Of a stretch of DNA of 36,922 nucleotides, positions 1-36,922 are shown piece after piece; the first letter of the stretch is position 1; every line of letters begins with the position of its first letter. Under the pieces are notes generated by a model. The model did no database searches. It saw nothing but the letters and a program-made list of their open reading frames with translations, and was not told the DNA's origin. Source of the DNA: a virus; the IMG/VR virus record IMGVR_UViG_3300009537_000075, positions 1 to 36,922 of that record; one strand, 5' to 3'. The position numbers and the translations under genes are program-made.

Positions 1-59
1 GGAGTATTTTTCTAAAGCATTCAACACACAAGGCCTTGGGTTTCATAATCCGGGCCTTT
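1..59. repeat. Terminal direct repeat, copy 1 (identical to 36864..36922)
   Basis: Bases 1-59 match the last 59 bases of the window base for base. This implies a circular or terminally redundant unit of 36,863 bp. Confidence 0.95.
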
Positions 60-5651: not shown

Positions 5652-5948
5652 ATGAAGCTCAAAACACTACTCTGTGCTGGAGTTCTTTTAAGCGTTTCTT
5701 TTTCGTCTCTTGCTGATACAAATAAAAAGAAGGTGGCAGAAAGGAAGAAGTATGTACTTGCAGCTTCTGCCATTGCAACCGGTGTTTTTTTAGGGGTTCC
5801 CGCATTATATTTTTGGTTTAGTTGTTTCCCAAAGAGTGCGCCAACTAAAAAAACTTTGCCAAACGTATCAAAAAAGAAGAAAAAACATCCTCATAAAGAT
5901 CCTGAAAAAGAAAAATCTGTAGAGGGTGAGAGCAAAAAGGTAAAATAA
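5652..5948 (+). CDS. Membrane protein with signal peptide, one TM helix and poly-Lys tail (98 aa)
   Basis: RBS GGAGG. Signal peptide MKLKTLLCAGVLLSVSFSSLA-DT, TM helix YVLAASAIATGVFLGVPALYFWF, and SKKKKKHPHKDPEKEK tail. Confidence 0.65.
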   Translation: MKLKTLLCAGVLLSVSFSSLADTNKKKVAERKKYVLAASAIATGVFLGVPALYFWFSCFPKSAPTKKTLPNVSKKKKKHPHKDPEKEKSVEGESKKVK

Positions 5949-5960
5949 CTTCATAATCGT

Positions 5961-6021
5961 CACCTAAATTGAAATAAAAGTTGATATTGCACCATCTTAT
6001 TTCAATTTAGGTGCTTTTTTT
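5961..6021 (+). terminator. Strong rho-independent terminator
   Basis: Perfect 17-bp stem CACCTAAATTGAAATAA (5961-5977) with TTATTTCAATTTAGGTG (5997-6013), followed by C plus T7 (6015-6021). Confidence 0.8.
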
Positions 6022-6034
6022 AAATAAGGAGTCT

Positions 6035-6511
6035 ATGACGCGAGAAACAGTCGGAAAGATATCACAAGACCTTCTCCTTAAAACCCCTGACACTAGAGAT
6101 CCTATTGAACTTGAACGCGAAATGCACAAAGACTATGAGAAAAACATCTTTGAATGCATAGAACGGTGTAAAAAGGAGTTTTTTGGTGATTTTTATGTGG
6201 TGGTGACGACGAAAAAAGAACGCCTTATGGAAAATGTTCTTAGAAATTACTTTTTTGGGCGTAAGACATGCCCTACCCCTGAATGGGATCAAACCGTGTA
6301 TCGCTATTTCCCAAAGGACGATTACCTTGAATTTTTGTGGGTGGTGCCGTCTAAAGATACGTGCGAATTATATAAGCAAAATGCCCTACAAGTTGACCCA
6401 AAAGAGAGAGAACTACTACAATATGTGCTAGATTTCTCAGACGGAACATTGTTAGAAAGAGCAAAAAAACTCAACGGCGAGCGAAAAGAATCGCCATTAT
6501 TAGAAACATAG
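6035..6511 (+). CDS. Hypothetical protein (158 aa)
   Basis: ATG 6035 is preceded by AAGGAG. The track start at 6011 lies inside the terminator stem. Confidence 0.65.
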   Translation: MTRETVGKISQDLLLKTPDTRDPIELEREMHKDYEKNIFECIERCKKEFFGDFYVVVTTKKERLMENVLRNYFFGRKTCPTPEWDQTVYRYFPKDDYLEFLWVVPSKDTCELYKQNALQVDPKERELLQYVLDFSDGTLLERAKKLNGERKESPLLET

Positions 6512-6520
6512 AGGAGCTCA

Positions 6521-7291
6521 ATGGAAGAAAATCAAACATCACTTGAAGAACTGAATCAACAGGATGGTATTCCCGCCCAAGGGGATCAAATGGATTCCCA
6601 GCTTTCAGAACAGTCGCCTTCTCCGGTGGAAAAAACCCATCAACCAGAAGTAAAACCTGCAGAATCGGACCAAGAAAGGAATCTCGCGGCCTTGCGACAA
6701 GCCCGAGAACGAGCAGAACGTGAACGTGATCAACTTGCGCAGCAACTGCAGCAAATGCAGCAACAAAAACCCCAGGAAGAGCCCTATCAAGATTACTCGG
6801 TAGCTCCAGACGCACTCGTTGAGGGAAAACATCTGAGCAAATATGATCGAGAGATTAAGGCTCTGAGGGAAGAGCTACACAAGTATCAACAGCAGACGAT
6901 TTCTCAATCTGCAGAAACACGCCTAAAAACGCAGTATCCTGACTTTGATAAAGTTGTTTCGGCTGAAAATATCAATGCGTTGCGCGAATCACATCCGGAA
7001 ATAGCGCAGACCTTGAGTACCTCATCCGATTTGTATAATCAGGGAGCCTCGGCATATAAAGTGATTAAGAGTCTCGGTATTTATAGAGAAGACACGTATG
7101 CCAAAGATCGTCAGAATGCTCACGTAAACGCTAACAAACCTCGTCCTTTGGCAAGCGTAGCACCAAGCCAGGGGGATTCTCCTTTATCTAATGCCAACGC
7201 ATTTGCTACCGGTGGAAAGAGAGCGGATGAGATGAGCGATCATCAAAAACAACTGTTTCAAGAGATGCAGGAGTTGCGTAAAAATTATTAA
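6521..7291 (+). CDS. Scaffolding-like protein (256 aa)
   Basis: Q/E/R-rich and predicted helical (ERAERERDQLAQQLQQMQQQ). It lies immediately upstream of the major capsid gene, with RBS GAGGAG. Confidence 0.5.
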   Translation: MEENQTSLEELNQQDGIPAQGDQMDSQLSEQSPSPVEKTHQPEVKPAESDQERNLAALRQARERAERERDQLAQQLQQMQQQKPQEEPYQDYSVAPDALVEGKHLSKYDREIKALREELHKYQQQTISQSAETRLKTQYPDFDKVVSAENINALRESHPEIAQTLSTSSDLYNQGASAYKVIKSLGIYREDTYAKDRQNAHVNANKPRPLASVAPSQGDSPLSNANAFATGGKRADEMSDHQKQLFQEMQELRKNY

Positions 7292-8500: not shown

Positions 8501-9493
8501 ATGGCATTTGATACTATTATACAGCAAGGTAGTTTTGCTTCTGATGGCACGCCTAAAGACCTTACGATTCGATCTGATTTTGATTGGATTGAAGTTTTTA
8601 ATGCAACCGCCGCAGGACAATCAACCGCTGACTTGGGATTTCGATATATTTTCCGTCGAGGCATGGGCGCAGCTGGTGGATATTTTGAAACCAAACTCGG
8701 AACAGTTGCTAATGATCCTATCACTGTAGGCCTCATCCCTTCAGGTGGTTTTAGTTTTCTTGATACATCTGGAAGCCCTGTCGGTGCATTAAACAGCACA
8801 ATTACAGCTGTTTCTACCGCCGCAACTCCAGTTGTTTCGCTTACAAGCACCTCAGGGTTGAGTACTGGTGACGTGGTTCGTCTTATCAACGTGTCCGGCG
8901 CACAACAGCTCGGTGGTTTTGATTTTACCATCGGTTCTGTTGTTGCTAACACAAGCTTTACGCTTGCTCATATGGCACAGTTGAGTGGCGCTGGTACGAC
9001 CGGTTCATTGAGAAAAATCTCATTTGATCCTAACTACTATCCTCGCCGTCGTTTTATTTCTGCTATTAGTAGCGGGGCAGCCGCTGAAGTAACACTCACC
9101 GTTACCCATGGTTACACTGTAGGGCAAGAGGTTCGGTTCCAAGTTCCTGCCGCCTACGGGATGACAGAAATAAACAACTTGACTGGTACTATTACCGCTG
9201 TGAACACTACAACGAATACCGTCACGGTTGATATTGATTCATCCGGATTTACCTCCTTCTCCTTCCCATTAACAGCCGCAGTTCCATTTACTCCGGCAAT
9301 GATGGTTCCTGTTGGAGAAGCAGCTGAAGATGCATATACCAATCTTCTTGATGATGCTACCGAAAACCAAGCATTCATCGGTGTTAACCTCGGACTTGGA
9401 GCTGCCGGTGATGGCTCGAATGGTCCTGCAGGGCAAAGCAACGATTCGGTATACTGGATAGCCGGTAAATCATTCAGCGTAAACAACGAATAG
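8501..9493 (+). CDS. Abundant virion protein with two beta-barrel (E1 FCCH-like) modules; possible capsid decoration or head-fibre protein
   Basis: 330 aa, strong RBS AAGGAGA, directly after the capsid gene and followed by a GC hairpin. Modules lie at about aa 105-158 and 195-256. Confidence 0.5.
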   Translation: MAFDTIIQQGSFASDGTPKDLTIRSDFDWIEVFNATAAGQSTADLGFRYIFRRGMGAAGGYFETKLGTVANDPITVGLIPSGGFSFLDTSGSPVGALNSTITAVSTAATPVVSLTSTSGLSTGDVVRLINVSGAQQLGGFDFTIGSVVANTSFTLAHMAQLSGAGTTGSLRKISFDPNYYPRRRFISAISSGAAAEVTLTVTHGYTVGQEVRFQVPAAYGMTEINNLTGTITAVNTTTNTVTVDIDSSGFTSFSFPLTAAVPFTPAMMVPVGEAAEDAYTNLLDDATENQAFIGVNLGLGAAGDGSNGPAGQSNDSVYWIAGKSFSVNNE

Positions 9494-12269: not shown

Positions 12270-14438
12270 ATGAAATACGATCGCTTTATGATTGCACCGC
12301 TTAATACCGGTTTACAAACCGATGTTAGACCGTGGCTTATTCCCGATGATGCATTTTCGCTTCTTAATAATGCATATGTTTTCCGTGGACGAGTCAGAAA
12401 GCGATTTGGTTCCTTATTGATGAACGGATCAGTTGATCCAGGTGTAGCACAACTGAATTCCCGCGTCCGTATACAAGTTGATACTACTGACGGTGCAGGA
12501 AATGCAGCAGGAACCGTCCCGGGTTCTACCTTTAAGGTAGGGCAACTATTTTCTATAGGTGATGAGATATTCACCGTTAATGCTTTGGGGGCACCCGCCG
12601 CGATGCTTAAGACGGGTGCCACAGTAACTGCAACGTATAACACAACAACTGGCGCATATAATTTTGTCGGAGCAGCGCTCAATACTGCAGTCTATTTCTT
12701 CCCGGCCGAACCGATTATGGGACTTATAACGTATGAGACAGCGCTTATTAATGATGAGCCAACATATGCATTTGATACACAATTTGCATATACGTTTGCC
12801 GGTGGCGCATGGTCGAGGATTGGGACAGCAGTTTGGACTGGAAGTAATTCTCAGTTTTTTTGGGGAACAACGTATCGTGGTATTAATGCATACGAAAACT
12901 TTTTGTTTATAACCAACTTTAATACTCCAGACCAGATAAAGTATTGGGACAGCTCCACATGGACGACCATTAATCCCCAGTTTAATGCGGCTGGCGATAC
13001 CATAGAAACAACTCGAATTATTGAGCCGTTTAAGGATCGTCTTATTTTTCTCAATACAGTGGAAAAGATAGGTGGCAATGATAGATCATTCCAAAATCGA
13101 TGCAGATTCTCTCAAAACGGAAATCCAGTAGCTGCCGACGCATGGCGAGAAGATATTGCCGGAAGGGGTGGTTACATAGATGCTCCAACTAAAGAAGCTA
13201 TCATCAGCGCTGAATTCCTAAAAGATCGCCTTATTGTCTTCTTTGAGCGCAGCACCTGGGAACTTGTGTATACCGGTAACGAAATTCTCCCATTTAGATG
13301 GCAACAAATAAACACAGAGCTTGGCGCAGAATCTACATTCTCTCGCGTACCATTCGACAAAGTGATACTGGGAGTTGGAAACGTCGGGATTCATGCTTGC
13401 AACGGATCGAATGTTGAGCGTATAGACCACAAGATCGATGATGCGGTATTTGAAATTCATAATGAAAACGAAGGGGTCTTCCGCGTTCAAGGCATACGAG
13501 ACTATACGGTAGAGATGGTCTACTGGACATTTCCATCTGCCGATAAAGATACAGAGTTTTCCGATAGGGTATTAACGTATGATTATGTTTCTGGTTCATG
13601 GTCTTTCAACGATGATTCGATCACTGCGTTCGGGTATTTTCAAAATCAATCTGATATTACGTGGGAATCGGTAAACAAAACTTGGGCAGAATCTGTTGAG
13701 CGTTGGAACAGTGGAACGCTTCAATCGCAATTCCGACAAGTTCTTGCAGGAAACCAAGAAGGTTTTGTTTTTATCGTTGATCCTGAGACAACACGAAATG
13801 CTCCAGCACTTCAAATTACCGATATGACCTTTGTAGGAAACCTAGTAACGCTCTCGGTACAGGACCACAATCTGTCGACCGAAGATTTCATTGTTATAGA
13901 GAATGCTCAAGGTATTACATCTCTGAATGATAACGTGTACCAGGTCAATACGGTTGTAGATAGCAATACGATTACCGTACTCCAGGTCGGGGTGTCTGGA
14001 ACCTATACAGGAGGCGGAACAATCGGACGGGTAAGTCGTATCGATATTAAGACAAAACAATACAATTTCTATCTTAAAGAAGGTAGAAATGCGTATGTAT
14101 CAAAAGTAGACTTTTTTGTTACTAAAACATCAGAAGGGTCTATTACCATAGATTCATTTCCTTCATCCTCCGAGGTCTCTCTGACAGAGGAGGGACAGGC
14201 AACCGGGGCCCTTTTAGGAACAAATATCCTGGAAACATCCCCATATTCCACTGTTCCTTTAGAGAATGCCCAGAGCCGCGTGTGGCATCCTGTTTACCTT
14301 CAGTCTGAAGGAGAGACCATCCAATTACGAATCTATCTAAGCGATGACCAGTTACAGGACACTTCTATTGCGTGGAGCGATTTCCAATTAAACGCAATGA
14401 CCTTCTATGCTATGCCAACTGCGGATAGATTGGAGTAG
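12270..14438 (+). CDS. Tail nozzle / tail tubular protein B-like (T7 gp12-like)
   Basis: 722 aa. N-terminus LNTGLQTDVRPWLIPDDAFSLLNNAYVFRGRVRKRFG parallels the T7 gp12 signature GGISQQPD.LR...Q...N......GL.KRPP. Size and position fit. It carries one FCCH-like module around 13840-14020. Confidence 0.6.
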   Translation: MKYDRFMIAPLNTGLQTDVRPWLIPDDAFSLLNNAYVFRGRVRKRFGSLLMNGSVDPGVAQLNSRVRIQVDTTDGAGNAAGTVPGSTFKVGQLFSIGDEIFTVNALGAPAAMLKTGATVTATYNTTTGAYNFVGAALNTAVYFFPAEPIMGLITYETALINDEPTYAFDTQFAYTFAGGAWSRIGTAVWTGSNSQFFWGTTYRGINAYENFLFITNFNTPDQIKYWDSSTWTTINPQFNAAGDTIETTRIIEPFKDRLIFLNTVEKIGGNDRSFQNRCRFSQNGNPVAADAWREDIAGRGGYIDAPTKEAIISAEFLKDRLIVFFERSTWELVYTGNEILPFRWQQINTELGAESTFSRVPFDKVILGVGNVGIHACNGSNVERIDHKIDDAVFEIHNENEGVFRVQGIRDYTVEMVYWTFPSADKDTEFSDRVLTYDYVSGSWSFNDDSITAFGYFQNQSDITWESVNKTWAESVERWNSGTLQSQFRQVLAGNQEGFVFIVDPETTRNAPALQITDMTFVGNLVTLSVQDHNLSTEDFIVIENAQGITSLNDNVYQVNTVVDSNTITVLQVGVSGTYTGGGTIGRVSRIDIKTKQYNFYLKEGRNAYVSKVDFFVTKTSEGSITIDSFPSSSEVSLTEEGQATGALLGTNILETSPYSTVPLENAQSRVWHPVYLQSEGETIQLRIYLSDDQLQDTSIAWSDFQLNAMTFYAMPTADRLE

Positions 14439-23323: not shown

Positions 23324-25327
23324 GTGAGCCAAACAGGGCAGTTTCCAGAAGGTCCAGTTATCTCTCCCATAGAAACTATTACCGGTAACTCTGGAGGAGA
23401 CGTAGGACCAGACGGTCTTGGAAATATAGATATTGTAGGGGATGGCACTCTTATTGATATAGTAGGAAATCCAGGCACGAATACCCTTGATGTCAATCTG
23501 AGTTCAGCAATTCCAAGTTCTTTTATTGCGGATGTTGGGACTGCCACACCTGTTTTAAATGCGTTAACAGTGGTTGGTGGAACCAATATGAACACCCAGG
23601 GTGCTGGAAATGTTCTCATTATTAATCTCGATACAGTAGTTTCGCTCACGACGCTTACTCTAGTTAATCCATTAGGTGTCGATAATGGTGGAACAGGAGT
23701 TAACTCATTAACAGACCATAGTCTGATGGTTGGTTCCGGGACATCTCCGGTGACATTATTGGGTGTTGCTACCGATGGACAACTCCCAATTGGCTCAACA
23801 GGAGCAGATCCAGTTCTTAATACCTTAACAGCTGGGCTCTCCACCCAAATTACGAATGCTGCTGGTAGCATTACCGTTGGTTTAACAACTAACGATCAAA
23901 AAACAGCAATTCAGGGATGGAATGGAAGTACGATTGAAAGTGCCTGCATGATGGTTACGTCTGATGGTGCTACCATTACCGCATCTGTTGAGAAACGGGG
24001 AGGTGGAGACCTTACTGTAGTATTCTCTGACGGTTTTTATGCATGGGATACGACTCCTGCTGACACAGTTACTTTAACAGCTGGATCAGATACGAGCCCA
24101 CAGATGAACTATGTGTACATGCCACAAGCAACAAAAACATTAACCGCAAACACGGTAGGCTTTCCCCTTACAGAAGAACACCTTCAAATAGGAACCGCTC
24201 TTTGTCCGAGCGCATCGTTAGTACAAACGAATGGTGCGTATTCAGTACATTCATATCAAAACCATGTTTTTGATGATGGAGATACTAACCAAGGCCATAT
24301 CGCTGATATCAATTTCTTAATTAGAAACCATCCAGCGACATGGATGAGTGGAGTAACTCCAACTCTAACAATTGATGGGGCTCCCTCGCCAGATACAGTC
24401 ATTTTTACAAGCACTGCAGGAACCGTACTCCAACTACACCCAGAGGATTTTCCGGCCTTTACTGGGACACCTGACATCTATGTGGTTAATGATTCGGTTA
24501 CGCCGTACACCATTATTACTGACTTGAATCAACTTACCGATGATTCAACCGGTGGCACTCTAGATAATAAATTCTTCTCTGTGGTGATTTGGGGAATAAT
24601 TAGCGAAGAGTCAGCAGACTGTAAATTAATGCTCAATCTGCCAAGTGGTACCTATACAAGTGATGTTGCGGTTACAGCAGATGATAACAAATACGCTGAT
24701 TATAATATTCCGCCCGAAATAAGAAGTTCTGGATTTTTGATTGCGCAGTATGATTTAAGAAAACAATCAGCTGGGGGTGGCACATGGACTCTCGTTAATC
24801 AATATGATCTGCGTGGCCTTATGCCGTCAGTTAACCCGGGTGGTACTTCATTAACCGGTAAAATTTTTGAAGACAATCTGTTTCGAATCATAGACGAAGT
24901 AGATAACACGAAGGAATTAGATTTTTCTGTGGGTGGTATTACGACAGCTACTACCAGAACTATCACCATGGCTGATCGTGATGTGGACCTTAATGCAGTG
25001 AGACCGTGGAGCGAAGAGACAGGAATCTCTGTAGGGATGGCTGTTAACAGTGATTATATTGCGAATAATGCCGCTCTCGTAACGCTCACGCTTCCAGCAG
25101 CCGCTGCCGTTGGCGATATTATATCGGTGGTTGGCAAAGGTGCGGGCGGCTGGCTTGTTGCACAGAACGCAGGACAGACGATTCATAAAGCTGGTGCAAG
25201 CACAACGACAGGGGTTGGTGGCTCTATAGCATCTACCGCACAGTATGATTCGGTAGAAATGGTATGTATAACGGCAAATACCGACTTTGTAGTGAGAAGT
25301 TCTGAGGGAACAATCACTGTAACGTAA
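23324..25327 (+). CDS. Tail fibre protein (667 aa)
   Basis: GTG start after AAGGAGAAA. Contains NGGTGVNSLTDH...LLGVATDGQLPIGSTGADPVLNTLTAG, a module shared with the next gene. The C-terminal ~95 aa are also shared with the next gene. Confidence 0.75.
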   Translation: MSQTGQFPEGPVISPIETITGNSGGDVGPDGLGNIDIVGDGTLIDIVGNPGTNTLDVNLSSAIPSSFIADVGTATPVLNALTVVGGTNMNTQGAGNVLIINLDTVVSLTTLTLVNPLGVDNGGTGVNSLTDHSLMVGSGTSPVTLLGVATDGQLPIGSTGADPVLNTLTAGLSTQITNAAGSITVGLTTNDQKTAIQGWNGSTIESACMMVTSDGATITASVEKRGGGDLTVVFSDGFYAWDTTPADTVTLTAGSDTSPQMNYVYMPQATKTLTANTVGFPLTEEHLQIGTALCPSASLVQTNGAYSVHSYQNHVFDDGDTNQGHIADINFLIRNHPATWMSGVTPTLTIDGAPSPDTVIFTSTAGTVLQLHPEDFPAFTGTPDIYVVNDSVTPYTIITDLNQLTDDSTGGTLDNKFFSVVIWGIISEESADCKLMLNLPSGTYTSDVAVTADDNKYADYNIPPEIRSSGFLIAQYDLRKQSAGGGTWTLVNQYDLRGLMPSVNPGGTSLTGKIFEDNLFRIIDEVDNTKELDFSVGGITTATTRTITMADRDVDLNAVRPWSEETGISVGMAVNSDYIANNAALVTLTLPAAAAVGDIISVVGKGAGGWLVAQNAGQTIHKAGASTTTGVGGSIASTAQYDSVEMVCITANTDFVVRSSEGTITVT

Positions 25328-25336
25328 AGGAGAATA

Positions 25337-26938
25337 ATGGCACGGCGACTTTCCGGATTAAATCCTCTTTCATATATAGGCGTTGAGCCTCTATCTCCTC
25401 CACAGTTTTTGGTTAAGCGTGTCGACCCCACTGCGAATGATAATAATTTCAATCTCGGAACGATGTGGTTAAACGAGGTAAACGAAGACACATTTCTACT
25501 TACCAGTAAATCTGGAGGTACAGCAACATGGTCTCGTTTTATTCCATCTGGCGCAGGGGCAGCTATCGACTTTGTGACCGCTTCAGGTACTGCAACTCCA
25601 GCGGCAGGAATTTTAAATGTTCCTGCGGGATCTAATATCACCACCGCTGGTGCTGGAGACACACTCACCATAAACCTTGTTGCCTCTCCTTCCGTTGCTG
25701 GATCATTAACCGCTGGCACTACCATAACCGCTGGAACAGGCTTAACCGTGACAGCAGGGGGCATCACCGCCGCGGGGACGATAACACTCTCAGATCTTAA
25801 TCTTGGTGTAGTGGTGTCAGATGCAGCTGGTATTCTTTCTGCTATCAATGGAACGAACGGCCAACTTCTTATTGGCGGTACAGCCATTGCGCCGATATGG
25901 GCAGATCTTACTTCCACAGGTGGCACGATAACGATTACGGGTGGTGCCAACACGCTCAATATAGAAACAGCGGGCACAACCGCTAACTCATTCCCAACCG
26001 ATTCAGGTACGGCAATTCCAGCTGCAGGCGCATTGACCATTGCGGGCGGTGCAAACATTGCCACTTCTGGAGCAGCATCCACTGTAACGATAGATGTTTC
26101 AGGAACGACCGATCATGCACTCCAACTCGGGAATGCGACGGGAAGCCTCACCTCACTTGGTGTTGCCACAGATGGACAATTACCGATCGGCTCTACAGGG
26201 TTAGATCCAGTACTTGCGACCTTAACGGCTGGTACGGATATCAACATTGTGAACGGTCCGGGATCCATAACGATTAACAGCACCGCATCTCCTGGAGCCA
26301 TCCAGTTTGATGGAGATGCAGGTTCCGCGGTTCCCGCGGCTGGTATTATTACCATGGCAGGTGGGAGCAATATCTCTACATCCGCTGCTGGGTCTACTGT
26401 TACTTACAATGTGAGTGGAACCACAGATCATGCTATACAGCTTGGTAATGCAGGTGGAAGTCTTACATCTCTTGGAGTTGCGACCGACGGGCAAATACCG
26501 ATTGGCGCCACAGGAACCGACCCTTCGCTCAATACTATCACTCCAGGTACTGGTATTTCTATTGCGAATGCCCCCGGAGCAATCACTATATCGGCAACGG
26601 GATCACAACTTCCTTGGACTGTTGTTGCCGGAGCGGCGCAAGCGCTTGCCATTAATAATGGTTATTTCTCAAATAATGCAGGACTGTGCACGTTTACACT
26701 TCCCGCTGTTGCCTCTGTGGGAGATGTTATTGAAGTAGCGCTCATGAATGCTACCGGAAGCTGGACAATTGCACAAAACGCAGGCCAAACTCTATATATT
26801 GGAAATACAAATACAACAACGGGGGCAGGTGGCAGCTTATCTTCTACCGATAAAGGTGACTGGTTAGAAATCATATGTCGTGTTGCTAATACTGATTTCC
26901 AAGTCAATGTTAAATCTGGAAACATAACGGTTGTATAA
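25337..26938 (+). CDS. Tail fibre protein (533 aa) with internal ~105-aa tandem duplication
   Basis: RBS AAAGGAGAA. Its N-terminus is paralogous to the giant fibre N-terminus. It has two consecutive copies of the SGTTDHA(L/I)QLGNA.GSLTSLGVATDGQ(L/I)PIG(S/A)TG module and a conserved C-terminal domain. Confidence 0.75.
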   Translation: MARRLSGLNPLSYIGVEPLSPPQFLVKRVDPTANDNNFNLGTMWLNEVNEDTFLLTSKSGGTATWSRFIPSGAGAAIDFVTASGTATPAAGILNVPAGSNITTAGAGDTLTINLVASPSVAGSLTAGTTITAGTGLTVTAGGITAAGTITLSDLNLGVVVSDAAGILSAINGTNGQLLIGGTAIAPIWADLTSTGGTITITGGANTLNIETAGTTANSFPTDSGTAIPAAGALTIAGGANIATSGAASTVTIDVSGTTDHALQLGNATGSLTSLGVATDGQLPIGSTGLDPVLATLTAGTDINIVNGPGSITINSTASPGAIQFDGDAGSAVPAAGIITMAGGSNISTSAAGSTVTYNVSGTTDHAIQLGNAGGSLTSLGVATDGQIPIGATGTDPSLNTITPGTGISIANAPGAITISATGSQLPWTVVAGAAQALAINNGYFSNNAGLCTFTLPAVASVGDVIEVALMNATGSWTIAQNAGQTLYIGNTNTTTGAGGSLSSTDKGDWLEIICRVANTDFQVNVKSGNITVV

Positions 26939-26946
26939 GGAAAAAC

Positions 26947-27285
26947 ATGGCAACTATTAATGCTATAAATACCGGAAAGCCGATAGAGGTTGCAAGTGGT
27001 GGGACTGGTGTAGCTTCTATAACGGCCTACACGGTTATTTGCGGTGGAACAACAGCAACAGATCCAGTACAACCAATCGCATCTGTAGGATCTGCGACTC
27101 AAGTTCTTACTTCGAACGGAGTAGGCGCCCTTCCATCTTTTCAGGCAGCTCCTGCAACTTCCATGGAATTTCAAATACTAGCATCTGATCCCGGCTCTCC
27201 TTCGGCAGGACAAGTATGGTTCAACACAACGAGTAATACATTTAAAGGATATAATGGAGCTATTGTCACTTTCACCGTGACATAG
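26947..27285 (+). CDS. Short fibre-tip/adaptor protein (112 aa)
   Basis: RBS TAAGGAAAAA. MATINAINTGKPIEVASGGTGVASITAY...QVLTSNGVGALPSFQ has the GGTG fibre motif. It is colinear with both ends of the next gene. Confidence 0.7.
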   Translation: MATINAINTGKPIEVASGGTGVASITAYTVICGGTTATDPVQPIASVGSATQVLTSNGVGALPSFQAAPATSMEFQILASDPGSPSAGQVWFNTTSNTFKGYNGAIVTFTVT

Positions 27286-27292
27286 GAGTGTG

Positions 27293-28504
27293 ATGGCAAC
27301 CATAAATAAAATTAATAGTTCCCTTCCTATAGAAATATCATTTGGTGGTACCGAAAATTCATCCTTGATTTCGTATGCTGTTATTTGCGGAGGGACGACA
27401 CCAACAAGCCCGCTTCAACAAGTTGCGTCTGTTGGATCATCTGGAGAAGTTTTAACATCAGAGGGTGCCGCAACACTTCCTATATTTAGAGATCTTCCAA
27501 CATTTTTTCAACCACTTGCTTCTGATCCAGCGAGTCCTTCTATTGGTGATGTATGGTTCAATACCACTACTAACTTATTTAAAGGAGCAATTGACAGCGG
27601 AGGAGCTGGTGCGTGGGTTATAAAAGCTAACCTTAATAGAGGTATCCGCGGAAACCTGATGTTTGGCACAGAAAATGACTGCATAAGTGCATGCGGATCT
27701 ACTGGCACTCCAAGAAGGTTTACGGAGCGATATAATTTAATTGCTGATTCTTGGACTTCCAAGTCACTAACGATTACAGCACGATTTGAAGGTGGTGCGG
27801 GTGGCCTCCCTGACTCCGGCGGAATATTTGGGGGAACCCTTACTAGTGGATCGCCAACTGGCTTAGCAGAAAGATATGACGGCATAGGAGATGCTTGGAG
27901 TGCTACTGCCAATATGCCCGTTCCGCGAACTTCGTTAGCCGGAGCTGGATCTACAGCTAACGATTGGCTCGCTTTTGGTGGCAGAAGTGGAGGCACCGCA
28001 TTTGATAATGTTCAACGATATGATGGCATAGGAAATTCGTGGGCAACGAAAGCTAATCTATTGCAACCTCGTCAGTTTCCTGCAGGGGGTGGTTCTGCTG
28101 GAGATGCAATGGCTTTTACTGGTAGAAGTTCTGGTGGAATCGATCTATCAACTACCGAACGCTATGATGGCGTCGGAGATTCCTGGTCTCTAAAAGCAAA
28201 TATTAATACTCCGCGAAATCAAGGAGGCGGGGGTGGCCAGTCTGGAGGTTCGGTACTTTCGTTTGGAGGGTCTCCAACCGGCCCAGTAAGTATAAGTTCA
28301 CGTACTGAAGAATACGATGGGATAGCAAATACATGGACAATCCGTACTGGTATGAATAACGCAAGGTCTTCAAATGGAGGCACAGGATCTTCGGGAACAG
28401 GAGGCATAACAGCGGGTGGAATAACAACACTAACAGGATTTAGTGATTCTACAGAAGTATATGGTGGTTCTCCTCCAACTATCGTGACATTCACCGTTGT
28501 ATAA
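27293..28504 (+). CDS. Fibre-tip protein with six-blade Kelch-like beta-propeller (403 aa)
   Basis: ATG 27293 after AGGAG (the track's GTG 27290 is too close to the RBS). The N-terminal ~98 aa are paralogous to 26947..27285. Six repeats of about 48 aa follow, of form R....G.G....L.FGG........ERYDGIGD.W....N...P. Confidence 0.75.
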   Translation: MATINKINSSLPIEISFGGTENSSLISYAVICGGTTPTSPLQQVASVGSSGEVLTSEGAATLPIFRDLPTFFQPLASDPASPSIGDVWFNTTTNLFKGAIDSGGAGAWVIKANLNRGIRGNLMFGTENDCISACGSTGTPRRFTERYNLIADSWTSKSLTITARFEGGAGGLPDSGGIFGGTLTSGSPTGLAERYDGIGDAWSATANMPVPRTSLAGAGSTANDWLAFGGRSGGTAFDNVQRYDGIGNSWATKANLLQPRQFPAGGGSAGDAMAFTGRSSGGIDLSTTERYDGVGDSWSLKANINTPRNQGGGGGQSGGSVLSFGGSPTGPVSISSRTEEYDGIANTWTIRTGMNNARSSNGGTGSSGTGGITAGGITTLTGFSDSTEVYGGSPPTIVTFTVV

Positions 28505-28516
28505 CAGTAGGATTTT

Positions 28517-29131
28517 ATGGATCGATTTAAATATCTCTCAAGCGCGCTTGGATCAACAGATGTTGATAAGCTCACGAGCATCAAATCAGAACTACAAGAC
28601 AGTTGGAATAAAGCCCAAGTATTTAGAACGGAGACTGAAGCGCGTGTTGGAGTTTTAAACATCTTTAAATTTCCTACAAAAGGTGCACAATATTGGCAAT
28701 CGGTTCGTGAACAATCAGCACAGTTTGATGAGCTTGTTGCGTTGTCATTTGAATTAAGAAGAAAAAAGATAGATCTCGAAGAATTGAAAGAAGAGATCAA
28801 AAACTGCACAGGCTATGAACTTGCGAGAAAGGAAGTTGATTTGGATGAGCTCCTCTTTCAAATTGCATGTGGGGAAAAGATTGCCCGAGATCGCGTGAGA
28901 GAGATTCTTCAGTGGTCGGAAATAAAAAAAGAGTTAAATGATGGTTCTTTTGATGACAAAAACGCAAATACACACCAACGAGAGTCTTTGTTTCGGAGCG
29001 CCCTAAAGAGAGCGCAGGTGGCGAATGATGAAATGACATCTGAAGAAAAGCTTTCTATTCAGGGTATTTTGTATCAATTGAAAGATGACGCCTCAAATCA
29101 AAAAATCCTTGAAAGCATTAAAAAGAAGTAA
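28517..29131 (+). CDS. Hypothetical helical/coiled-coil protein (204 aa)
   Basis: RBS TAGGA. Charged helical sequence (ELRRKKIDLEELKEEIKN). No family recognised. Confidence 0.6.
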   Translation: MDRFKYLSSALGSTDVDKLTSIKSELQDSWNKAQVFRTETEARVGVLNIFKFPTKGAQYWQSVREQSAQFDELVALSFELRRKKIDLEELKEEIKNCTGYELARKEVDLDELLFQIACGEKIARDRVREILQWSEIKKELNDGSFDDKNANTHQRESLFRSALKRAQVANDEMTSEEKLSIQGILYQLKDDASNQKILESIKKK

Positions 29132-30336: not shown

Positions 30337-30594
30337 TTGTCCACGATTTCCAGGTTTGTTGCAGTACTTGTGGAGTTACCTTTACATGTATTGCATCGCT
30401 CGCTCTTGCAGTGGTTCAAAATAGCATCCATTGTTATTGTTGCCGCAATTGGTATAGGATCACGCTATTTCTTTAAAGGAAAAACAGATAACATCATCGA
30501 AGAAGCTGCTGAAAAGATAATTGAGGAGAAAACCGGGAGAGACATAGATCTTTCTCCAAGTACCCCAGAAAAAAAACGACGCCACATTAAATAA
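30337..30594 (+). CDS. 3' portion of the split small membrane-protein gene (TM helix plus charged tail), with a possible new N-terminal extension
   Basis: The ORF is open from TTG 30337. From 30412 it encodes WFKIASIVIVAAIGIGSRYFFKGKTDNIIEEAAEKIIEEKTGRDIDLSPSTPEKKRRHIK. The true start is uncertain. Confidence 0.45.
   Translation: MSTISRFVAVLVELPLHVLHRSLLQWFKIASIVIVAAIGIGSRYFFKGKTDNIIEEAAEKIIEEKTGRDIDLSPSTPEKKRRHIK
30411..30443 (+). repeat. 33-bp perfect direct repeat, right copy
   Basis: Identical to 29476..29508 and in the same reading frame. Confidence 0.95.
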
Positions 30595-36863: not shown

Positions 36864-36922
36864 GGAGTATTTTTCTAAAGCATTCAACACACAAGGCCTT
36901 GGGTTTCATAATCCGGGCCTTT
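36864..36922. repeat. Terminal direct repeat, copy 2 (identical to 1..59)
   Basis: Exact 59/59 match to the window start. Confidence 0.95.

Follow-up and report, generated by a model that had tools for sequence, protein, structure and literature searches.

The stretch of DNA analyzed here, called the window below, is a contig of 36,922 nucleotides (~36.9 kb) that was assembled as a circle and comes from an uncultured tailed phage with a P22-like portal (IMG/VR record IMGVR_UViG_3300009537_000075). Two adjacent genes on its plus strand (Table 1) encode proteins of 112 and 403 amino acids (aa) that appear to be fiber subunits built on one scaffold, which in the longer protein carries a predicted six-bladed Kelch propeller and in the shorter, "headless" protein does not. 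The pair lies in the late structural module, directly after two fiber genes and with a gene for an S74 chaperone domain behind it, a setting expected of fiber or receptor-binding proteins. Each of the two genes has a strong Shine-Dalgarno site of its own. The gap between the short and the long gene is 7 nucleotides and a search for a terminator between them found none, which argues that the two form a co-transcribed pair.

One scaffold with and without a predicted propeller

A sequence-only reading of the locus had proposed that the two proteins are colinear over approximately their first 98 residues and again at their extreme C termini, and that the ~290 aa between these anchors in the longer protein consist of six Kelch-like repeats. 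Our analyses bear out these proposals. BLASTP aligns residues 1–101 of the short protein with residues 1–98 of the long protein at 60 identical positions out of 101 (59%, E 1e-35). Both proteins end in IVTFTV (6/6 identical). Although the pairwise E of this match is 0.36, which is not significant, the C-terminal likeness appears to be real because the end is conserved across both families: the pattern xTF[TS]x[TSV] closes 15 of the 16 short-family members and 11 of the 14 long-family members and is present in both proteins in eight of nine genomes examined. Since the N-terminal module and the terminal strand are common to both products and both genes belong to the fiber-gene cluster, the further proposal that this phage encodes one anchor with and without a propeller, side by side, also stands.

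The matched N-terminal region contains a conserved peptide and one "GGTG" unit of ~60 aa. When 1.84 billion cluster representatives were searched with a profile, 7762 matched this unit at E ≤1e-3; proteins of >2000 aa contain as many as 29 copies of it, and many carriers exceed 1000 aa. Because it is so widespread, we regard the unit as a shaft module rather than a private anchor. A modular shaft and anchor common to other fibers are expected of a fiber protein and, in addition to the sharing of the GGTG unit, the anchor is also found fused to C1q-like and knob heads.

Beyond the shaft unit both proteins contain a small element that we call the frame, consisting of a strand, an SDP loop and a hairpin. 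The frames of the short and long families match each other with an HHalign probability of 99.2% (E 9e-20). In the AlphaFold2 model of the short protein, strands at residues 76–78, 90–93 and 98–102 have predicted local distance difference test (pLDDT) scores of 83–88, and the frame and closing strand together form a four-stranded meander at the same confidence. Residues 1–26 of this model score below 50 and confidence is modest up to about residue 80, which we ascribe to the modeling of a fiber chain on its own. In the long protein, strands of the frame and of the extra strand AWVIK that follows it are predicted at residues 73–75, 87–90, 95–101 and 107–111 (pLDDT 84–90). The short-family profile had no significant match among Protein Data Bank (PDB) sequences, and a Foldseek search with the short model returned nothing significant, the best match being the N-terminal region of CBA120 TSP4 (E 1.1). 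The SDP hairpin also occurs in tandem in open reading frames (ORFs) of ~140 aa that lack any propeller, which suggests that the frame element is a general fiber building block. In IMG/VR contigs L015–L022, propeller-free ORFs at ~5830..6440 contain two tandem hairpin motifs of the form DP..P..G..YYN….FKGYNG..W.

The remainder of the long protein consists of six repeats of 48–50 aa (residues 112–159, 160–207, 208–255, 256–303, 304–353 and 354–403). The GG doublet, tyrosine and tryptophan characteristic of Kelch repeats recur in them as FGG ... ERYDG ... SW..K, and the Pfam profiles Kelch_6 (33.3 bits; gathering cut-off 25.3), Kelch_1 (27.6; 20.1), Kelch_2 (24.9; 21.3) and Kelch_3 (24.2; 22.0) all match above their cut-offs. 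The AlphaFold2 model, built with 44 homologues, has a mean pLDDT of 86.9, rising to ~97 over residues 110–400, and contains 6 × 4 strands in the repeat region. Its best Foldseek match in the PDB is NS1-BP (5yy8; E 1.1e-20; target-normalized template modeling [TM] score 0.85), and other six-blade Kelch domains, including those of KLHL17, KLHL3 and Keap1, are also matched. Across the solved six-blade Kelch domains, target-normalized TM scores are 0.79–0.85 and root-mean-square deviations 2.4–2.7 Å over ~257 columns. The long protein is thus predicted to carry a closed ring of six four-stranded blades. In a library of viral structures, Foldseek matches it best to Kelch proteins from jumbo phages (PhiPA3, PS119XW and a CBB "structural protein") and from uncultured tailed phages. 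Neither a megablast search with the fiber region nor a tblastn search with the Kelch protein found a match among 50,697 cultured-phage records.

Two strands are candidates for the outer strand of blade 6, AWVIK (residues 107–111) and IVTFTV (residues 395–400). The secondary-structure string favors IVTFTV, which in the AlphaFold2 model starts three residues after strand C of this blade. In the repeat register, LFKGA occupies the strand-C position, AWVIK the strand-D position, and IVTFTV is strand D of blade 6. From this register, exactly six repeat units are missing from the short protein and the junction falls in a C–D loop, a difference compatible with either collapse of the repeats or their insertion. 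The propellers of different phages are 35–42% identical. This divergence suggests that the propeller is likely the variable, receptor-binding part, and the scaffold would be the conserved part used in assembly.

The pair in related phages

The short family has 16 members, which are 106–113 aa long and 50–75% identical. In all nine related genomes that contain a Kelch gene with this anchor (the window, L001, L002, L003, L004/5, L006, L009, L011 and L026), a short gene lies directly upstream of it, and in three of the nine, L001, L002 and L009, two anchor-Kelch genes follow the short gene. Pairwise comparison of eight short genes gave nonsynonymous divergence (dN) of 0.24–0.74 and synonymous divergence (dS) that is >1.3 or saturated, with a ratio of ≤0.38. 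Together with the constant length of the family, this ratio argues that selection preserves the short gene and that it is no debris. The short protein represents an old, conserved family under purifying selection that has been kept as a partner of the Kelch protein.

The short gene is coupled specifically to Kelch heads on this anchor. In L007 and L008, the Kelch head is on another N terminus, that of the window's 533-aa fiber (P0012 of L007, with a MARRL-type N terminus), the MATKN anchor bears two heads of C1q-like type, and the short gene is absent. In L013 the anchor bears two non-Kelch heads, and the short-family profile found no headless ORF of ~110 aa in this locus.

Among the best 150 cluster representatives, the profile matches the N terminus through the frame in proteins of two length classes, 106–113 and 383–403 aa. 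The sequence-only reading had suggested a survey for intermediates with other blade numbers; none was found in this set. We considered the 171-aa protein P0227 as a one-blade form and rejected it, as it looks like a truncated or frameshifted Kelch gene.

Two proteins depart from the usual arrangement in other ways. In L026 (Logan SRR22808013_116393), a complete 401-aa gene at 6001..7206 encodes a protein, P0184, in which six Kelch blades come first and the short module follows in full, with its PIEIEKGGT shaft, its frame and VTFTVT, the reverse of the domain order in the window's Kelch protein. This gene is placed before a normal short gene, which is followed by a normal anchor-Kelch gene. In P0014 the docking peptide, frame, propeller and closing strand are present and the shaft unit is missing. 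Judging from these arrangements, the short module is a scaffold that stands on its own and can take a propeller at more than one point.

The N-terminal ~75 aa of short and Kelch proteins are more similar within genomes (56.9% identity) than between genomes (42.4%; permutation p 2e-5), and for seven of the nine Kelch anchors the short protein from the same genome is the best or joint-best match. Lineage-specific shaft subtypes and indels are common to the short and Kelch genes in L003 and L004. Such matched N-terminal modules suggest that both proteins bind one partner, which may be a docking site, or that they bind each other. All three paralogues of L009 have closing strands that leave the consensus together (FMFNVT, VFDLTVV and SFDLTAV), although this is a single data point. 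Recent gene conversion could be ruled out as the source of the matched anchors because synonymous sites have diverged: only 33–70% of identical residues are encoded by identical codons in the short and Kelch genes.

Neighboring genes

The ends of the window (bases 1..59 and 36864..36922) are 59 identical bases offset by one base, which indicates a circular assembly and a complete genome of ~36.86 kb. Its genes run in the order terminase, P22-like portal (Pfam E 1e-70), capsid and fiber cluster, and the portal is ~22–26% identical to portals of Pseudomonas, Ralstonia and Burkholderia podophages. None of eight proteins of the fiber cluster has a match in NCBIfam.

Table 1. Positions in the window of the short and long fiber genes, their parts, and neighboring features
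Feature	Position	Strand	Basis
Short "headless" fiber gene, 112 aa (P0084)	26947..27285	+	ORF, translation, conserved family, dN/dS
Short protein, aa 1–70: N-terminal peptide MATINAIN..PIE and one GGTG fiber-shaft unit	26947..27156	+	59% identity to long protein
Short protein, aa 73–102: frame (strand FQIL, SDPGSP loop [SDPGSPSAGQ], hairpin VWFN/TFKGY)	27163..27252	+	AlphaFold2, HHalign
Short protein, aa 105–112: terminal strand AIVTFTVT	27259..27282	+	AlphaFold2 strand 106–110; kept in 15/16 members
Long fiber gene, 403 aa (P0001): anchor, frame, predicted six-blade Kelch propeller, terminal strand	27293..28504	+	
Long protein, aa 1–69: N-terminal peptide and GGTG shaft unit as in short protein	27293..27499	+	
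Long protein, aa 70–111: frame (FQPL, SDPASP loop, hairpin VWFN/LFKGAID) and extra D-like strand AWVIK	27500..27625	+	AlphaFold2, repeat register
Long protein: six Kelch repeats, predicted six-bladed β-propeller	27626..28501	+	Pfam, AlphaFold2, Foldseek, repeat alignment
Long protein, aa 396–403: terminal strand TIVTFTVV, strand-D position of blade 6	28478..28501	+	AlphaFold2 strand 395–400, register
Shine-Dalgarno AAGGA of short gene, overlapping stop codon of upstream fiber gene	26937..26941	+	Sequence read
Shine-Dalgarno AGGAG of long gene, overlapping TAG stop of short gene	27284..27288	+	Sequence read
Upstream fiber gene, 533 aa: MARRLSGLNPLSY N terminus, GGTG-type repeats, C-terminal knob ending GNITVV	25337..26938	+	Translation
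Upstream fiber gene, 667 aa: MSQ-type N terminus, knob ending GTITVT	23324..25327	+	Translation; homologous N termini in related loci
204-aa helical protein, Kelch-linked partner and candidate assembly factor	28517..29131	+	Homologues behind Kelch gene
Free-standing Peptidase_S74 domain protein, 109 aa	29140..29469	+	Pfam PF13884, E 5.7e-8, residues 6–60

Directly behind the Kelch gene lies the gene for a helical protein of 204 aa, which has no family match in Pfam, PHROG or NCBIfam. In all ten related loci (nine others were aligned), a homologue of 52–56% identity is encoded behind the Kelch gene, and of 13 more distant homologues in genome contigs, 10 are beside a Kelch-like ORF. These contigs have been binned with SAR11, Flavobacteriaceae, Methylococcaceae, Patescibacteria and others. 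The 204-aa protein is a strong candidate for a chaperone or partner specific to Kelch fibers. The S74 protein, encoded next, has PHROG matches to the C-terminal ends of tail fibers, and none of the other loci showed such a gene in this place. Its match to S74, the intramolecular chaperone of endosialidase, begins at residue 6, near the point where the domain is normally cleaved off the fiber C terminus; a stand-alone form is unusual.

The two upstream fibers differ at their N termini (MSQ-type in the 667-aa protein and MARRLSGLNPLSY-type in the 533-aa protein) and have paralogous C-terminal knobs of ~95 aa with the motif LPA.A.VGD.I.V…AQNAGQT…C..ANTDF.V….GNITVV. This knob is found on many anchors in related phages and its T/V end strand resembles VTFTVT. 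Near the end of the fiber cluster, at 30337..30594 in the window and 8719..8901 in L026, is a conserved small protein with a hydrophobic segment and, behind it, an acidic tail (EE.AE.I..E.TG.DIDLSP..PE), possibly a holin-like or membrane protein. Elsewhere in the window, the products of 8501..9493 and 12270..14438 match the E1_FCCH family of Pfam at E ~1e-5, below the gathering score, which may reflect a small β domain common to head or tail decoration proteins.

Possible roles of the headless protein

That the short protein is the scaffold alone and the long protein the scaffold plus a propeller, and that both are conserved, co-expressed fiber subunits, is well supported. How do the two function together? 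On balance, we lean toward a co-transcribed pair of subunits that co-assemble. The scaffold comprises the docking peptide MATINxIN..PIE, a single GGTG shaft unit, a β-meander of small size (strand, SDPxSP loop and hairpin) and the closing strand VTFTVT. The Kelch protein retains all of this and has its six Kelch repeats between hairpin and closing strand, the latter probably doubling as the outermost strand of blade 6. Both proteins would be virion components whose N-terminal module binds one partner or each other. Our preferred mechanism is that short chains join Kelch chains in a single trimeric fiber tip, which would therefore carry fewer than three propellers, or two different ones where the phage has two Kelch genes. 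A mixed trimer would explain why only Kelch paralogues have a headless companion and why this companion retains their frame and closing strand. A stricter version, in which the two proteins are obligate partners and the headless chain takes one or two of the three positions, so that the tip shows one or two propellers (two different ones if there are two Kelch genes), seems to us unlikely.

Several points weigh against co-assembly. The frames of short and Kelch proteins are no more alike within genomes (49.1% identity) than between them (48.6%), and co-variation that is limited to the N-terminal ~75 aa is explained by a common docking partner no less well than by a mixed trimer. Old gene conversion between the adjacent paralogues could also have given matched anchors without selection. 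In addition, the AlphaFold2 monomer models of both proteins are of low confidence over residues 1–70, and phage fibers of mixed chains are rare.

Almost as likely as co-assembly is a model in which each protein forms its own homotrimer and these occupy equivalent docking sites. The short protein might then be a bare stub or minimal fiber that occupies the Kelch fiber's docking sites and acts as a spacer, a plug, an adaptor to which something else binds or a means of setting the number of propeller fibers per virion, a possible if somewhat unlikely role. Related phages often have two or three adjacent genes with one N-terminal module and different heads (Kelch, C1q-like or a β-sandwich knob), and multi-fiber cassettes of this kind usually follow homotrimer logic. 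The restriction of co-variation to the anchor also fits, as does the higher conservation of the short protein's end relative to the Kelch heads, which would be expected of a protein–protein interface. However, homotrimers do not account for the fact that the headless form accompanies only Kelch paralogues (9/9) and is missing with other heads, or for its retention of the Kelch protein's frame and closing strand. Another possibility, which we consider improbable, is that the short protein is an assembly factor that is later released, a template or chaperone that nucleates trimerization or folding of the Kelch fiber through its shaft and frame. It is small, conserved, co-transcribed and specific to Kelch fibers, all of which would suit such a factor, but it has no match to the known fiber chaperone families (Tfa, gp38, gp57A and S74) in Pfam, PHROGs or NCBIfam, and its gene is upstream of the fiber gene. 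Genes for known fiber chaperones are usually downstream, where the window has better candidates in the Kelch-linked 204-aa protein and the free S74 domain. Moreover, in P0184 the short module is a permanent C-terminal end of a propeller protein.

The last ~40 aa of the short protein could be a free, single Kelch-like blade that oligomerizes into a propeller-like ring, or that supplies or caps a blade of the neighbor's propeller in trans, in keeping with the four-stranded meander of the model and with the repeat register, in which LFKGA and AWVIK of the long protein correspond to strands C and D of a blade and IVTFTV to strand D. The sequence-only reading had likewise taken VWFNTT.N.FKG for a propeller strand. 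Neither idea fares well against a profile of 78 blades, which HHalign matches with probabilities of only 1.0% for the short family and 4.0% for the N-terminal frame of the long family (P 0.01–0.05), nor against the propeller-free proteins with tandem SDP hairpins, and the predicted propeller is complete with its 6 × 4 strands unaided. We therefore regard a free blade as very improbable. It is harder still to credit that the short gene is a decaying remnant, left by a recent deletion between the first and last repeats or by a cassette swap. Unequal recombination would be expected to remove exactly six repeat units in register with a junction in the C–D loop, and the sequence-only reading, which had proposed collapse or insertion, was correct that the two proteins differ by the propeller precisely. 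Yet a recent collapse is contradicted by the age of the family and the selection on it: the length is constant in at least nine divergent genomes with saturated synonymous sites, the start codon and Shine-Dalgarno site are intact, the gene is ~61% identical in nucleotide sequence to its neighbor with no long identical tracts, and short ORFs do not cluster with their own Kelch gene in the frame region. Collapse may be the distant origin of the short gene rather than its present state.

Propeller heads, shared anchors and anchor-only adaptors are already known in phages. The description of Pectobacterium phage CBB, where CBB_552 was found in virions by mass spectrometry, calls Kelch domains unusual among phages (PMC5259590). 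The sequence-only reading had called Kelch propellers unusual as receptor-binding domains of phages. Jumbo phages have them in virion proteins, and many uncultured phages encode them. The jumbo-phage proteins (Pectobacterium CBB gp552, Pseudomonas PhiPA3 and PS119XW) resemble the window's in having a six-bladed Kelch domain (Foldseek E 1e-18 to 1e-12). They differ in having no sequence relationship to it detectable by tblastn against cultured phages, and they have not been described with its anchor, frame, closing strand or headless paralogue. Closer in design are widespread phage Kelch proteins of ~320–340 aa (P0017, P0018, P0035 and others) with the pattern MA.Y..I.G.NI.VVSSDP.NP..GQIWYNSTSN.LKG ... 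T.T.TS. Like the window protein, these have the frame, six blades and the closing strand, and they are often beside a homologue of the 204-aa protein; unlike it, they lack the docking peptide and GGTG unit, and none had a headless partner in the loci examined.

Several receptor-binding proteins can be mounted on a conserved N-terminal module, as in the K1E/K1-5/SP6 adaptor and the KP32-type systems of anchors, branching domains and docking peptides, and headless, anchor-only adaptor proteins exist in such branched systems (Latka et al., 2019, PMC6872550; PMC13352976). Like the K1-5/SP6-type adaptors, the short protein is a homologue of the anchor of its likely receptor-binding neighbor (59% over 101 aa) without a head domain. 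In contrast to branched systems, we identified no branching domain in it, and it keeps the end-piece of its partner's head rather than the anchor only. Pfam, PHROG, NCBIfam, PDB-sequence and fold searches revealed no similarity to T7 gp17-type anchors.

The T4 proteins gp36 and gp37 are also a short fiber protein and a long, receptor-binding neighbor that are encoded side by side, contain the same repeat motifs and are both structural. They resemble the window pair in this respect, but gp36 and gp37 are joined end to end, do not have N- and C-terminal ends in common and include no propeller. In the staphylococcal siphophages phi11 and 80alpha, Gp45 and its counterpart receptor-binding protein have a trimeric stalk and propeller "platform" domains that bind cell-wall glycopolymers. 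These propellers are five-bladed and not of the Kelch type, and there is no headless paralogue. The tower domain of these proteins follows the propeller, whereas in the window's Kelch protein the propeller is inserted before the closing strand. Neither the CBB Kelch proteins, the Klebsiella phage anchor and branching systems nor T4 gp36/gp37 show similarity in sequence or fold to the scaffold module of the window. Our literature search turned up no case in which a headless paralogue is conserved and retains the end-piece of its partner's head.

Modular receptor-binding proteins determine the host range of phages, and phage engineering calls for rules on how their heads can be exchanged. Here, a scaffold of ~110 aa is maintained alone and takes a 290-aa propeller at a defined loop or, in a relative, at its N terminus, and such natural insertion variants mark permissive points and a minimal scaffold for display. 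Kelch propellers also appear to be a common and unstudied type of head in uncultured phages, including phages on contigs binned with SAR11, Flavobacteriaceae and methanotrophs. The strict conservation of the headless partner suggests that there is an unrecognized component in the assembly or stoichiometry of propeller-tipped fibers. If the two proteins do form mixed trimers, the phage would have genetically encoded control over the valency and combination of heads on each fiber. The pair would then represent the "before and after" of a propeller added to, or collapsed from, a loop of a small trimeric scaffold, with the permuted, propeller-first protein of a relative as a third arrangement.

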